NCBI GenBank assembly: GCA_964558645.1
Contig: CAZLEV010000001.1
Span: forward strand, 125,568 to 189,567
Direction of reading: 5' to 3'
Length of the DNA: 64,000 nucleotides
Origin: an uncultured archaeon
GTDB taxonomy: Archaea > Asgardarchaeota > Thorarchaeia > Thorarchaeales > Thorarchaeaceae
How positions within the stretch are numbered: the stretch's first letter is position 1; every line of letters starts with the position of its first letter. Made by a program: the position numbers and the translations under genes. This document shows positions 21,250-29,177 of this stretch, piece after piece. Below the pieces are notes generated by a model that worked only from the letters and a program-made list of their open reading frames with translations, was not told where the DNA came from and ran no database searches.

Positions 21250-21422
21250 AGCCTATTCCTCAGTCACGAAGGGCTTCAATCCTTTCTTTTTGAAGTGTTT
21301 GGTATTTGGTTTGCTCAAGCTGCTAGGTTTTTTTCATGTAGAAAGACAGGGAAAACCTTTATTCACTGAAATTACTCCTAGCAGACAACAGTTTTCGTGA
21401 ACCCTCACGGATGTGCTCCAAA

Positions 21423-21731
21423 ATGCCAGCAATGCCAAAGCGCGAGATGTTCGAACAGATAATACAGAGCATTACGAGTAAGTTTCCTGATGTATACGCT
21501 GCCCTCTTCATTAGTCCCGAAGGCTTCCCAATCAACACCTGGGGAGTATCCATGGAGCGCGCTGAAGAGATCTCGGCGCTTCTGAGTTCCCTTATTGGCA
21601 AGACAAAGGAGATTATATGCCAGGTAAGTGAAGGTGCTGCAATGCAGTTCATCCAGATTGCAACCAATATCGGGTCTATCAGGATTGCTCCTCAAGAGGA
21701 GTATATCCTTGTGACGCTGGCAAAGAACTGA
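21423..21731 (+). CDS. Roadblock/LC7-domain protein
   Basis: AALFISPEGFPI..EISALLSSL..IATNIGSIRI..ILVTL. Confidence 0.8.
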   Translation: MPAMPKREMFEQIIQSITSKFPDVYAALFISPEGFPINTWGVSMERAEEISALLSSLIGKTKEIICQVSEGAAMQFIQIATNIGSIRIAPQEEYILVTLAKN

Positions 21732-24498: not shown

Positions 24499-25800
24499 AT
24501 GCCTAGTCTGGTTATCCTCGGTCTGCAATGGGGCGATGAAGGAAAGGGGAAGATTGTGGATTATTTGTCCGGCGAATTTGACATCATCGTTAGATTCCAA
24601 GGGGGGAATAATGCAGGACATACTGTCAAGATTCGGGATAGCACATACCGCCTCAGGTTAATTCCAACCGGTGCTATCCGGGGAAAGAGAGTCGTCATAG
24701 GAAATGGGGTGGTCGTGGATCCGCGCACATTGTTAGATGAAATCTCTGATCTCAGGAAAGCAGGTATCACTGTTGATCTCCTATTGAGTAATAGAGCGCA
24801 CATAACCACTCCTTATCATGTCAAGATTGATGAGCTTCAGGAGCTCGAGAAGGGAGAAACCCAGATTGGTACAACGAAGAGAGGCATCGGTCCAACATAT
24901 TCGAACAAGATAGACAGAATCGGTCTGAGAGTTGCCGACTTCTTGATAGAGCCATCGGAGTCAGTTGATGGATTTCGAGAATCGATATCTGCGAAAGTCG
25001 CTGCTCTATTCGGCATCGAAGTGACAGACGAGCTCAAGAATGAATATGAGCTGTGCTGTACACTTGTGCGATCTCTTGAGCCGCATATTGGCGATACAGG
25101 GGAGTATCTGAGAGCGGCGATACAGAGAGGTGAACGCGTGCTTTTCGAAGGCGCTCAGGGAACTATGCTCGACATAGATCACGGAACCTATCCATTTGTG
25201 ACATCTTCCAACTGCAGTATAGGGGGTGTTCCAACTGGAACTGGCGTTCCCCTATCTCAAGTTGGTTCGGTTCTTGGGGTCGCGAAGGCATATGTTACAA
25301 GAGTAGGGACCGGACCGTTTCCCACCGAACTGCACGACAGTGTTGGTAAGGCTATTCAAGCACGAGGGAAGGAATTCGGTACAGTCACAGGCAGACCAAG
25401 GCGGTGTGGCTGGCTTGACTTAGTAGCTCTAAGATATGCAGTAGCGCTGAATGATGCACGCCATCTTGCAATCACCAAGATAGACGTGCTTTCTGGCTTA
25501 TCAAAACTGAAAGTCTGCACAGGCTACGAATTGAGTGGTTCAGAGATTTCGTCCATCCCTGCACATGCAGACCAGTACGAATCAGTAGAACCCATCTATG
25601 AAGAAGTGAAGGGGTGGGCTGCTCCTGAGGAGGGGCACTGGACTCGGGTCTTGGAAGGTGGGCCTGATTCTTTGCCGGCCAATCTCCTCGAGTATGTGGA
25701 ACTGATCGAGAGATTCACCAAGTCAGAAGTGAAACTGCTTTCATTCGGGCCGAAGCGAGAAGAAACCTTGGTCCTAGATGAGAAATGGTTTCAAGACTAG
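24499..25800 (+). CDS. purA: Adenylosuccinate synthetase
   Basis: QWGDEGKGK, GGNNAGHT, EGAQGTMLDIDHGTYPFVTSS, TGRPRRCGWLD. Confidence 0.97.
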   Translation: MPSLVILGLQWGDEGKGKIVDYLSGEFDIIVRFQGGNNAGHTVKIRDSTYRLRLIPTGAIRGKRVVIGNGVVVDPRTLLDEISDLRKAGITVDLLLSNRAHITTPYHVKIDELQELEKGETQIGTTKRGIGPTYSNKIDRIGLRVADFLIEPSESVDGFRESISAKVAALFGIEVTDELKNEYELCCTLVRSLEPHIGDTGEYLRAAIQRGERVLFEGAQGTMLDIDHGTYPFVTSSNCSIGGVPTGTGVPLSQVGSVLGVAKAYVTRVGTGPFPTELHDSVGKAIQARGKEFGTVTGRPRRCGWLDLVALRYAVALNDARHLAITKIDVLSGLSKLKVCTGYELSGSEISSIPAHADQYESVEPIYEEVKGWAAPEEGHWTRVLEGGPDSLPANLLEYVELIERFTKSEVKLLSFGPKREETLVLDEKWFQD

Positions 25801-26342
25801 ATGTGTTTGAACTCGATTATCACTATTGACAAGATGACCATTAGTACTATCAGAAGCAGGATTGGAGGCGTCCAGTTCAGAAAGAGCTCGAAGTATCCAA
25901 CGATTGTTGATGGGTCAAGCGCGATAACAACGAGGTGGGCATAGATCAGAAGGAACCCATAGACTGCGAATATGGGATAGAATACTGGTCCGCCACTAAT
26001 GACTAGAAGCAGAACGAGTAGTGCAAGACGACTTTTGGTTGGATCAAGAAGTGAGACCGGTATTATTTCATCATCATCGAACTGGAAGTAGTAGCTCGGA
26101 AGAAACGTTGGTTTCCTAACCCGTAGTAGTTCGAGTATCTGCACTCCCAGTTGCACTGATAGGAGTGCGAAGGTATGCACAAGCATATAGCCCAAGATTA
26201 GGGCATTGAGTATCGGCAAGTCCTCTTGAAAGATTTGGAAGCTATCAACAACACCAACAAGAACACAGAAATTGATGACAAAAAGGGCCATATGCCCGAA
26301 CGCACCTCTTATTATCTGGGCCCTTTCTGGCATTTGAATCAA
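25797..26342 (-). CDS. Hypothetical membrane protein (about 4-5 TM)
   Basis: Hydrophobic ORF directly downstream of the Rab-like GTPase. Confidence 0.6.
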   Translation of the reverse strand: MIQMPERAQIIRGAFGHMALFVINFCVLVGVVDSFQIFQEDLPILNALILGYMLVHTFALLSVQLGVQILELLRVRKPTFLPSYYFQFDDDEIIPVSLLDPTKSRLALLVLLLVISGGPVFYPIFAVYGFLLIYAHLVVIALDPSTIVGYFELFLNWTPPILLLIVLMVILSIVIIEFKHI

Positions 26343-26359: not shown

Positions 26360-26962
26360 CTAGGTCATCTTGGATGGTTTTCCGGGAGTTACTGGTCCGG
26401 TTTGCTTCTTCCCGGATTGACGTGCCTGTTTCTGCTTTTCAATTGCCCTTTGCACAAGGTCTGTGAACAAGTCGTTAACATTCTCACCAGTCTTGGCTGA
26501 TGTTTCATAGTGCATAACATCCAGCCATTTCTTGACCATCTCTCCTGCCTCAGGTGGCACAAGTCTATCCGGACGGTCTATCTTGTTTGCGACAACCGTT
26601 ACAACGGCATTAGGGCAAACTGCAACAAACTTGGTGAACCACTCACCTATGTCCAAGAAGGTCTGAGGACGCGTCACGTCGTATACGATTATCGCCATCG
26701 AGGCGCCAGCCATGTATCGTCTTCTGAGCTCATTGTAGGTGGGCTGGCCAGCGAGGTCCCAGAGTACCACACGAGCTGTGACATCACTACCATCGGGCAT
26801 TTCCAGACTCACTGTTTTTAGCGCGAAGGTCGTGCCGATGGTCATGATGTAGCGTTCGCTGAAGCTGTCCTCAGTGTATCGCTTGATGCAGCTTGTCTTG
26901 CCGACGGCCCCATCTCCCAGGGCAACAAGCTTGAACATGTGCGATATCTCTTTTGTGGACAT
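26360..26962 (-). CDS. Rab-like small GTPase
   Basis: GDGAVGKTS, TIG, WDLAGQ, NKID, ETSAK. Confidence 0.92.
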   Translation of the reverse strand: MSTKEISHMFKLVALGDGAVGKTSCIKRYTEDSFSERYIMTIGTTFALKTVSLEMPDGSDVTARVVLWDLAGQPTYNELRRRYMAGASMAIIVYDVTRPQTFLDIGEWFTKFVAVCPNAVVTVVANKIDRPDRLVPPEAGEMVKKWLDVMHYETSAKTGENVNDLFTDLVQRAIEKQKQARQSGKKQTGPVTPGKPSKMT

Positions 26963-27392
26963 CTTGATAACGACCTCTGGTACACTGCCTCGAAAGAAAC
27001 CATATGTCCATTTAATGATTCTGGGAATGTCCTCCCAGCAATATTTCACGGTGAATGTCGCATGTATTCACCAGCACACCTCTCTAGGGAATTCCTCCAT
27101 AAGGGTTCGGCTCGGGTGTCACCTTCTTCAAACACGCAATAGACACCGTTCATTGTGTGTTGGATAAACTTGAGCACCACAGAATTGCCCCCAGATAACG
27201 GCATTGGTGGTTTCTGTCGTGGTCAGCGATACTTTGTGAGCGACCAGCTCTCAGTCATGGGCCGGATGATACAGACTCCTGCGCTGAAATGTCCAACTTT
27301 GTCCACGTTTTCCGTAACTGTTGGTATATCCTCAAAGCTTTTTTCTACTAAGTGTGCATGTCTGACATGACGATCATAGCAGGTGAAGTCCT

Positions 27393-28136
27393 ATGGCAGA
27401 GCAGTTTCTAAACAAGCTAAATGAGATTGAGAAGAGCATAGATTCTCTTGGTGATACCCTGAAACGCATGATTACGATACTCTCCACACTCAATGAGATC
27501 AAGTCGGAGGTGCGGGTTTCGAAGGAGGAAATCATCAATCGGATGCAGCAGATTTCTTCTCAGTCTACGGATACCACCACCGAAGAGGCAACTCAGAAGT
27601 TGACTGCTGAAGTTCAGTCTGTGAAAGAGGAGCTGATTTCTGTTGTCTCTGGTATGGGGGCTTCACAGTCGGGCGTATCGCGGGAAGAAGTAAACGAGAT
27701 AGTCAAGTCAGAGATCGATGAGTTAGGCAAGTTCATCATCGAAGGCATCGAAGACATGAAAGAAGACTTGATTGTGGCACTGAAGTCAGCTCCTGCGGCG
27801 GTTGCAGCACCACGCGTAGAATCTCAGGGAGAAACAGCTCCCGTGGCCTCTGACGCGAGTCTTGCTCCTGATCGTGCAATGAAGATTGCTGATCAGCTCC
27901 AGGTGATCTTGGATTCACTGAAAATGGGGTGTGTCGCGGGGGACGTTCTGGAAACCATGAATGAGGCCAAGTCCAGCATCATGAATATCGTGCCGAGCGA
28001 CCCAATCATGGTTAAGATTGACAAGTGGGCCGGCGTCGTAAAAACATATTCAAAGAGACACGAGCTGCAGGCACGTGACATTCTGAAACTGAAAAAGGAC
28101 CTACGTGAAGAGATCTCGAAGTATAGACCCGCCTAG
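27393..28136 (+). CDS. Coiled-coil protein with Vps28-CTD-like C-terminal domain
   Basis: Heptad-rich N-terminus, Ala/Pro linker, C-terminal D-LK..A-D-L..K..W..L..DL pattern. Confidence 0.55.
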   Translation: MAEQFLNKLNEIEKSIDSLGDTLKRMITILSTLNEIKSEVRVSKEEIINRMQQISSQSTDTTTEEATQKLTAEVQSVKEELISVVSGMGASQSGVSREEVNEIVKSEIDELGKFIIEGIEDMKEDLIVALKSAPAAVAAPRVESQGETAPVASDASLAPDRAMKIADQLQVILDSLKMGCVAGDVLETMNEAKSSIMNIVPSDPIMVKIDKWAGVVKTYSKRHELQARDILKLKKDLREEISKYRPA

Positions 28137-28537
28137 TCTTCGGAAGCTCCACCCGCAATCATCTTCATAGTTGCAAGTACACGAATCAGGTCTGTTGCAG
28201 TGACTATTCCTATCGTCTGATCACCGTCTACAACAGGAAGGTGTTTCTTCCCTGTTCTATCCATCAGGGCGATGGCCTGCCAGAGGTCTGCCTCAGGAGA
28301 TATGCTGACCACCTGAGTCGTCATGATATCGCCCAGTCTGAGCCCCTTGTAGGCTTCCGGAGATAGTAGCTGTGAAGATATGAGATCTCTTTGAGTCACA
28401 ATGCCAACCATCGTATCTCCCTTGGTGATAACAAGACTACCGATGTCTTCAGCTGCCAAGAGCTTGGCGGCATCCGAAACTTGCATCGATATATCTGAAG
28501 TCACCAGAACAGACGTCATGAATTCTCTCACTTGCAT
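28133..28537 (-). CDS. CBS-domain pair protein
   Basis: VREFMT..IGSLVI..GIVTQRD; DIMT..HLPVVD..GIVTATD. Confidence 0.9.
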   Translation of the reverse strand: MQVREFMTSVLVTSDISMQVSDAAKLLAAEDIGSLVITKGDTMVGIVTQRDLISSQLLSPEAYKGLRLGDIMTTQVVSISPEADLWQAIALMDRTGKKHLPVVDGDQTIGIVTATDLIRVLATMKMIAGGASED

Positions 28538-28571
28538 CGTCTATATGCTCCCGTCCGTAAAACTACCGTAA

Positions 28572-29177
28572 CTACATTTCAGTATCACGTTGCTCTTCTA
28601 ACTTCTTCTCCAGAATCAAAGTCGCTATCTCTCGAAATACATCTGCTACGGCCGTTCCAGTCTTCGCTGAGGTCTCGTAATAGGGTGCTTGGAACCAGTT
28701 TCTCAGCATGTGTCCTGGTTCAATTGGAACCATCCTCTCTTCTTCAAGATCTGTCTTATTGGCGGCCAATACCACTTCTGCGTCTGGACAAGTTTCTCTG
28801 AATGACTCAAACCAATTGTTCATTGCCATGAATGTTTCGGGCCTGGTAACATCATAGACAACAACCGCGCCTGCAGCTCCCTTCATGAACTGTCTTCGGA
28901 GTTCCCTGTATGTTTCCTGCCCTGCCATATCCCAGATTACAAGACGCACATTTCTGGTTTCTTCATCTTCTGATGTAACAGATACATCCTTGCTGGCAAA
29001 GGTTGTGCCGATGGTCTGTTTATACTCCTCATCGAAGACATTCTCAGTGAACCGCCTCAAGACCGATGTCTTGCCAACTCTTGCATCACCAAGAAGCACA
29101 ACCCGGAACTTGAATCCATCAAAACCTCCGTCCTCGGTGGGGCTTTTGCTGGTAGAGCTGGAATTCCCTGATGTCAT
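28572..29177 (-). CDS. Rab-like small GTPase
   Basis: GDARVGKTS, YKQTIG, WDMAGQE, NKTD, ETSAK. Confidence 0.92.
   Translation of the reverse strand: MTSGNSSSTSKSPTEDGGFDGFKFRVVLLGDARVGKTSVLRRFTENVFDEEYKQTIGTTFASKDVSVTSEDEETRNVRLVIWDMAGQETYRELRRQFMKGAAGAVVVYDVTRPETFMAMNNWFESFRETCPDAEVVLAANKTDLEEERMVPIEPGHMLRNWFQAPYYETSAKTGTAVADVFREIATLILEKKLEEQRDTEM

Follow-up and report, generated by a model that had tools for sequence, protein, structure and literature searches.

A divergent Vps28-C-like domain on an unrelated N-terminal part in a conserved protein family of Thorarchaeia

The endosomal sorting complex required for transport (ESCRT) systems of Asgard archaea offer the best view of the origin of eukaryotic membrane sorting. 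Vps28 (Pfam PF03997) is a subunit of ESCRT-I whose C-terminal domain (CTD), or Vps28-C, is represented by the structures 2J9U, 2J9V, 2J9W and 2G3K and bridges ESCRT-I to ESCRT-II by binding Vps36/Vps22, while its N-terminal domain (NTD) carries a steadiness-box (SB)/headpiece hairpin for assembly with Vps23/Vps37. Vps28-C has been outlined as a shuffled module borne by Asgard proteins of various kinds, in some cases alongside longin domains, and fusion of the SB to Vps22 has been published as a general Asgard feature, with an example from Thorarchaeia included (Makarova et al. 2024, mBio, PMC10936438). Two-hybrid contacts between Vps28 and Vps22 were reported for other Asgard lineages, and no ubiquitin homologue was found in Thorarchaeia (Hatano et al. 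2022, PMC9192718). The Thorarchaeia are distinctive twice, in that no ubiquitin homologue has been found in them and in that no canonical Vps28 was found in the family considered here. The present analysis concerns one gene in a 64,000-nucleotide stretch of an uncultured member of that family (positions 125,568 to 189,567 of contig CAZLEV010000001.1, assembly GCA_964558645.1; hereafter the window). Its product, referred to as the target, is probably a Thorarchaeia-specific adaptor-type protein in which a homologous, divergent Vps28-C is carried on an unrelated N-terminal part.

Architecture of the target and the likeness of its CTD to Vps28-C

The target is the product of a real and conserved gene, with 329 homologues found, almost all annotated as hypothetical proteins of Thorarchaeota. 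An alignment of 52 orthologous sequences, which also served as the AlphaFold2 input for the full-length protein, divides it into a conserved N-terminal helix, a variable helical spacer, a flexible linker and the CTD (Table 1). The CTD has a mean column identity of 80% among orthologues whose overall identity is ~50%, and its four helices (residues 159-175, 182-199, 205-217 and 227-244) have a predicted local distance difference test (pLDDT) score of 94-98 in the full-length model; modelled in isolation, the domain reaches pLDDT 93 and a predicted template-modelling score of 0.83. Many invariant residues lie within the first 40 (M1, A2, E3, F5, L9, L19, L23, R25, M26 and T28), and the start codon is taken as correct because the N-terminus, MAEQF, is conserved in the alignment; a GGTGA motif is found 8-12 nt 5' of the ATG. 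The N-terminal helix (residues 2-57) is modelled at pLDDT 74-87, and the spacer helices (63-90 and 97-131) at 54-74, in a region that differs in length and sequence among orthologues and carries large indels. The linker is disordered between residues 134 and 155 (pLDDT <50), and its length varies across all orthologues.

The likeness of the CTD to Vps28-C was examined against Pfam, with profile-profile alignments and by structure searches. With the isolated CTD as query, PF03997 was the top Pfam match (E 0.033, 14.4 bits, residues 16-87 against profile positions 107-182), in the same register as the profile-profile alignment described below, and the best member of the family gave E 0.0047. Searches with the full-length target returned just weak coiled-coil noise from Pfam (Med11, BAR_3 and others), a feature-based protein atlas gave no usable match to the CTD or to the N-terminal part, and hidden Markov model searches of PDB sequences with the target and merged-CTD alignments found apolipoproteins and RuvB at E >0.005 and no Vps28.

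For the profile comparisons, a canonical Asgard Vps28 alignment was built from genomes in which PF03997 exceeds its curated Pfam gathering score of 24.5 bits, and the CTDs of the target family were merged with those of a shorter paralogue (see below) into one profile with an effective sequence number (Neff) of 3.5. This merged profile matched canonical Asgard Vps28 with an hhalign probability of 67.6% (P 4.9e-5) and a set of 42 Asgard Vps28 CTDs with 93.2% (P 2.9e-7; score 41.3), the latter alignment running the full length of the domain in 82 columns and pairing both conserved Trp positions; against the same CTDs the long form alone gave 84% and the short form alone 92%. Reversed templates scored 12.9-14.7, column shuffles 12.3 +/- 2.5, and 100 block shuffles, in which blocks of 7 columns preserved helix periodicity, 15.9 +/- 3.7 with a maximum of 28.7; the observed score was reached by none of the ~300 nulls. 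The closest subgroup is the Vps28-C of DDRGK-type proteins, which aligns with the Thorarchaeia CTD family at a score of 36.4 (88%, P 2.9e-6), whereas two subgroups that Pfam accepts as Vps28-C, the DDRGK-type and the Loki-type, score 18.5 against each other. These comparisons span ~90 columns at <25% identity, too little for reliable tree support.

Structure searches converged on the same domain. Foldseek ranked the Vps28 CTD first in the PDB with both models, with template-modelling (TM) scores of 0.65-0.70 for 2j9w_A and 0.66-0.71 for 2j9v and 2g3k, the latter two at a root-mean-square deviation of 2.8 A. An exhaustive alignment against 48,161 chains placed the yeast Vps28 CTD (2j9u_A) at the top, with Z 10.1 over 91/94 residues. 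The shape search of the ESM Atlas, which is more specific than the exhaustive scan of PDB chains, returned eukaryotic Vps28 in its first row (TM 0.70, PF03997 in 100% of members), a fungal methyltransferase-VPS28 fusion in its sixth, and in its second an Asgard family that combines DDRGK, UFL1-like (E3 UFM1 ligase) and PCI winged-helix regions with a Pfam-positive C-terminal Vps28-C. Proteins of this last architecture, ~790 aa long, are encoded in other Asgard families (L078:198-2549:+ and L079:158-2527:+), and suggest that a UFMylation-like or PCI scaffold is linked to ESCRT-II in those lineages.

A preliminary description of this DNA, made from the sequence, had read the gene as encoding a long N-terminal coiled coil, an Ala/Pro linker and a terminal helical domain like the CTD of Vps28, and had labelled it ESCRT-I. 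Translation, alignment and AlphaFold2 bear out this layout, and the motif string quoted for the terminal domain is present in the translation. The resemblance to the Vps28 CTD was recovered by hhalign, by Foldseek and the ESM Atlas, and as the top, sub-threshold, Pfam match of the isolated CTD. The ESCRT-I label was not upheld, given an N-terminal part without a detectable Vps28 headpiece or SB and a gene that lies on a different contig from the ESCRT cluster.

Distribution, paralogues and false Vps28 signals

Among 301 sampled Asgard genomes, the CTD family was present in 72 of the 76 from the window's family and in the single genome of a sister family of the same order (73/77 for the order), and it was found in 0 of the 224 sampled genomes of the remaining Asgard families. 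PF03997 above its cut-off occurred in 195 of the 301, essentially all outside the window's family, where canonical Vps28 above the cut-off was not found; "not found" is used here rather than "absent" because the sampled genomes vary in completeness. A coiled-coil protein with a Vps28-C thus occurs in a lineage in which the canonical protein, with SB and Vps28-C, was not found.

The marginal PF03997 matches examined within the family all come from one genus (g12) and are of two kinds. One covers just an N-terminal segment (profile positions 6-64), the pattern that the SB of an SB-Vps22 protein should give; the other is a charged helical protein of 410 aa, which in this genus gives 24-26 bits over the whole profile and is the sole match in the family at the level of the cut-off. 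As a "true" Vps28 of Thorarchaeia the 410-aa protein was rejected, its profile P of 0.11 comparing with 0.046 for a reversed null, and it is a probable origin of "Vps28" misannotations in Thorarchaeota. It is universal and highly conserved in the family (G000:C5:86453-87685 in the genome of the window; L032:1489-2718:+), and its gene adjoins a D-aminoacyl-tRNA deacylase-like gene. In the genome of the window PF03997 has a single match (E 0.14), which falls within a 621-aa ATPase-like open reading frame (ORF) and is spurious.

A short paralogue of the target, of ~172-197 aa, is found in many Thorarchaeia genomes, including the window's own (Table 1). It has the same N-terminal helix and a Vps28-C-like CTD, the long and short CTD profiles being clearly homologous (hhalign 97%, 1.3e-11), and a second Trp is present in its last helix, as in canonical Vps28-C. 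The gene is always flanked by a cupin gene and by a conserved ORF of ~113 aa with a DHH phosphoesterase, and in the two genomes inspected, the window's own and one other, no GTPase or ESCRT gene lies nearby. An exact look-up of one short paralogue (L060) found it not on record, and a homologue search with a distant family member (P0137) returned just 4 proteins. A third variant (L064:201-1340:+, at a contig end in genome G299) encodes 380 aa. Its coiled coil is much longer and rich in Ser, Asp and Glu, a segment rich in Lys is present, and its end resembles the CTD more weakly (E 1.5e-4 against the CTD profile). A near-universal "hypothetical" protein with a divergent Vps28-C, together with its shorter paralogue, would partly fill the Vps28 gap in this lineage.

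The locus and the readings it allows

The genes around the target are listed in Table 1.

Table 1. Features of the target gene, its neighbourhood and its short paralogue (window positions unless another locus is given)
Feature	Position	Strand	Evidence or remark
Target gene, long form of the Thorarchaeia coiled-coil + Vps28-C family	27393..28136	+	247 codons plus stop; ORF list, translation
Conserved N-terminal helix, residues 1-57	27393..27563	+	alignment, AlphaFold2
Variable helical spacer, residues 58-131	27564..27785	+	alignment indels, AlphaFold2
Pro/Ala-rich flexible linker, residues 132-158	27786..27866	+	AlphaFold2 pLDDT <50, alignment
Vps28-C-like four-helix bundle (CTD), residues 159-247, most conserved part	27867..28133	+	structure models, hhalign, Pfam
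Rab-like small GTPase 1 (GTPase-1), divergent from target	26360..27049	-	Pfam Ras 3.6e-40
Multi-pass transmembrane (TM) protein, 181 aa, directly downstream of GTPase-1	25797..26342	-	no Pfam family
CBS-pair protein, 134 aa, convergent with target	28133..28537	-	Pfam CBS 3.4e-26
Rab-like small GTPase 2 (GTPase-2), convergent with target	28572..29177	-	Pfam Ras 4.4e-47
Roadblock/LC7 protein (small-GTPase regulator family)	21411..21731	+	5 kb upstream, same conserved block, beside RadA
Short paralogue of target, 172 aa	G000:C8:155371-155583; L054:8342-8860:-		same genome, outside window

The preliminary description had placed the target between a divergent GTPase with its membrane protein and a convergent CBS gene with a second GTPase, and this gene order is as it had claimed; the 3' ends of the target and CBS genes overlap by 4 nt. 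The neighbourhood is also conserved in relatives within the family, the order in the window being repeated in three independent assemblies whose target orthologues are ~50% identical: Roadblock/LC7, RadA, geranylgeranyl reductase, PurA, TM protein, GTPase-1, target, CBS, GTPase-2, PheRS beta and alpha, and aRF1, with a conserved block of ~12 kb around the target. The genome of the sister family retains PurA, the TM protein, GTPase-1 and the target, and has an FAD oxidoreductase in place of CBS and GTPase-2. The further proposal of that description, that the locus forms a "Rab-ESCRT-I module", fared less evenly: the neighbourhood, whose lack in relatives would by that description have refuted it, is conserved in the family, whereas possible colinearity with housekeeping genes, the partial loss in the sister family and a paralogue without a GTPase neighbour count against a functional unit.

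The best solved relative of GTPase-1 is a "Thorarchaeota Rab" (7ezb, E 1.3e-33), with eukaryotic Rabs next. Its mechanically called ORF begins at a GTG that lies 29-37 codons 5' of the starts of its orthologues (M..ISHMFKL or MFKL), and the true start is probably, as in these, the Met at 26962 or 26938. GTPase-1 orthologues end in a short P-[FH]-K-[LIM]-x tail instead of prenylation cysteines. In one genome (G155, contig C3) GTPase-1 and the TM protein form a single frame of 383 aa (L105:584-1732:-), the C-terminal half of which is 58% identical to the TM protein of the window (E 1e-70). The TM protein is therefore a probable membrane partner of GTPase-1, and the fusion gives a Rosetta-stone hint that this Rab-like GTPase, devoid of a CaaX motif, is anchored through it; it was seen in a single genome and may stem from a lost stop codon or an assembly error. 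Because the fusion joins those two proteins, it ties GTPase-1 to the TM protein and not to the target.

The ESCRT cluster of the same genome (Snf7, Vps4, Vps25, SB-Vps22 and a Zn-ribbon/PH/SB protein) is on contig C2. The first ~80 residues of its Vps22 are a Vps28-type SB (98%, 2.9e-13), and this SB-Vps22 fusion is kept in 45/46 genomes of the window's family. The Zn-ribbon/PH protein of the cluster (L041:5326-6885:+; 520 aa) has N-terminal Zn ribbons and a PH/GLUE-like segment, gave no Pfam match, and is collinear with ThorAB25_08990, labelled "SB" by Hatano et al.; in the scheme of Makarova et al. it would be a Znr_PH_CC_SB protein.

Several results weigh against the identification of the CTD as a Vps28-C, and with it against the adaptor reading. 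PF03997 has no match in the full-length target at E<=1, and no member of the family attains its cut-off; a CTD profile of close orthologues only (Neff 1.9) aligned in a plausible register with the CTD portion of Vps28, but weakly (P 0.045), significance arising only once the short paralogue was included and a wider set of Vps28-C sequences served as template; Foldseek E-values for the Vps28 CTD are merely ~0.03; a designed bundle equals 2j9u_A at Z 10.1 and many unrelated bundles reach Z 7-9, a range that does not discriminate among helical bundles, since four-helix bundles match one another easily; and the target gene, on contig C1, is apart from the ESCRT cluster. Most of these points would fit a generic up-down four-helix bundle that had converged on a Vps28-C-like shape, with neither ancestry nor function in common. 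Such convergence would not readily account for a profile score far above its reversed and block-shuffled nulls, for an end-to-end alignment that keeps both conserved Trp residues, for the first rank of Vps28 in three independent structure libraries, or for a CTD that scores higher against accepted Vps28-C subgroups than certain of these do against one another, and it is judged improbable; that the CTD is a divergent homologue of Vps28-C is very likely. It is also conceivable that the target is a true, highly diverged Vps28, the N-terminal helices being an SB hairpin that is no longer recognizable and the protein serving as the ESCRT-I subunit in Thorarchaeia. The layout of a helical N-terminal part, a flexible linker and a C-terminal bundle resembles that of Vps28, nearly every sampled genome of the order has the family, and its distribution is complementary to that of canonical Vps28. 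However, compared at the level of sequence, the N-terminal part (residues 1-133 or 1-60) matched the Asgard Vps28 NTD/SB and the Thorarchaeia Vps22 SB only at reversed-null level (hhalign P 0.03-0.23; 0.23 against the Vps28 NTD and 0.12 against the Vps22 SB), while the positive control, that Vps22 SB against the Vps28 NTD, gave 99.2% (7.7e-20). The middle of the N-terminal part is moreover variable, and the gene is unlinked to ESCRT genes. The target thus appears not to be a Vps28 orthologue, because it is without the SB/headpiece hairpin, and the chance that it is one seems slim.

A different alternative concerns what the target does. It could be a Rab effector that binds the GTP form of GTPase-1, held at the membrane via the TM protein, and brings ESCRT-II/III there. 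The arrangement of the TM protein and GTPase-1 opposite the target is retained at every family locus inspected as well as in the sister-family genome, GTPase-1 is Rab-like and in one genome is fused to the TM protein, a Roadblock/LC7 gene lies within the same block, and Makarova et al. report Vps28-C proteins with longin domains, which tie this class of domain to small GTPases. Against this, the conserved block includes housekeeping genes (RadA, PurA, geranylgeranyl reductase, PheRS and aRF1), and the adjacency of target and GTPase may therefore be plain colinearity; CBS and GTPase-2 are not retained in the sister family; and the short paralogue, with the same N-terminal helix and CTD, has in two genomes neither a GTPase nor an ESCRT gene as neighbour. 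A complex prediction for GTPase-1 with GTP, Mg and the full-length target scored 0.00, a "no answer" that is evidence neither way. Such a module is considered unlikely, and the adaptor reading is preferred.

Proposed role and comparison with known systems

The adaptor reading builds on elements that are regarded as demonstrated, namely the fold of the CTD and its homology to Vps28-C, the flexible tether, the invariant N-terminal helix common to the paralogue, the phyletic pattern with conservation throughout the order, and the conserved locus. The N-terminal helix and variable spacer would be joined by the Pro/Ala linker to a Vps28-C bundle that docks onto the ESCRT-II/III set of the same genome, comprising SB-Vps22, Vps25, the Zn-ribbon/PH/SB protein and Snf7, while the invariant helix would bind a second partner. 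Docking on ESCRT-II is proposed because the CTD of Vps28 bridges ESCRT-I to ESCRT-II and in view of the two-hybrid contacts of Vps28 with Vps22 in other Asgard lineages (Hatano et al. 2022), and by analogy with the zinc finger of yeast Vps36 the 520-aa Zn-ribbon/PH protein is a candidate docking site. Since the window's order is one in which the canonical SB and Vps28-C protein was not found, the target family may supply the Vps28-C function there, and it is a specific candidate for the means by which Thorarchaeia engage ESCRT-II. The neighbouring Rab-like GTPase is a doubtful partner for the N-terminal helix, although its conserved position next to the target, together with its membrane partner, provides a testable lead. 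The stronger combination, in which the target of Thorarchaeia both takes over from Vps28 the docking to ESCRT-II and owes its own recruitment to the neighbouring, membrane-anchored Rab-like GTPase, is decidedly improbable; if true, it would be a prokaryotic Rab-to-ESCRT recruitment pathway that foreshadows GTPase-controlled endosomal sorting in eukaryotes.

No description of the target family was found, and databases call its members "hypothetical". Because Vps28-C as a shuffled Asgard adaptor module has already been published, the advance is incremental; as far as can be told, what is new here is the short paralogue, homology statistics that are calibrated, a distribution complementary to that of canonical Vps28, and the dismissal of the 410-aa protein as a false positive.

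Compared to Vps28 itself, the target has a four-helix bundle of ~90 residues in the same C-terminal position after a flexible linker, homologous at the profile level and with Vps28 as its best structural match, and the conserved Trp positions and an L..LD..K[LM] pattern in helix 1 are common to both. Unlike Vps28, it has an unrelated conserved helix and a variable spacer in place of the SB/headpiece hairpin, falls below the Pfam cut-off and is encoded outside the ESCRT cluster, and its binding to ESCRT-II is predicted by analogy. The stand-alone Vps28-C proteins of some Asgard genomes (asCOG cog.004115, for example in Heimdallarchaeota AB_125) are likewise instances of a Vps28-C encoded apart from the SB hairpin. 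They lie in the ESCRT cluster beside Vps22 and Vps23 and co-occur with full Vps28, whereas the target is unlinked to ESCRT genes, has an additional N-terminal part and comes from genomes in which canonical Vps28 was not found. Judged by its sequence, the target belongs with a class restricted to Asgard archaea and composed of multidomain proteins in which a C-terminal Vps28-C is borne by an N-terminal part foreign to ESCRT-I, for example the DDRGK/UFL1-like/PCI proteins of ~790 aa. It differs from the described members in that their CTDs exceed the Pfam cut-off and its own does not, in that its N-terminal ~130 aa form a plain helix or coiled coil and not a winged-helix/PCI, adaptin or longin region, and in that its family is confined to one order, in which it has a short paralogue of its own.

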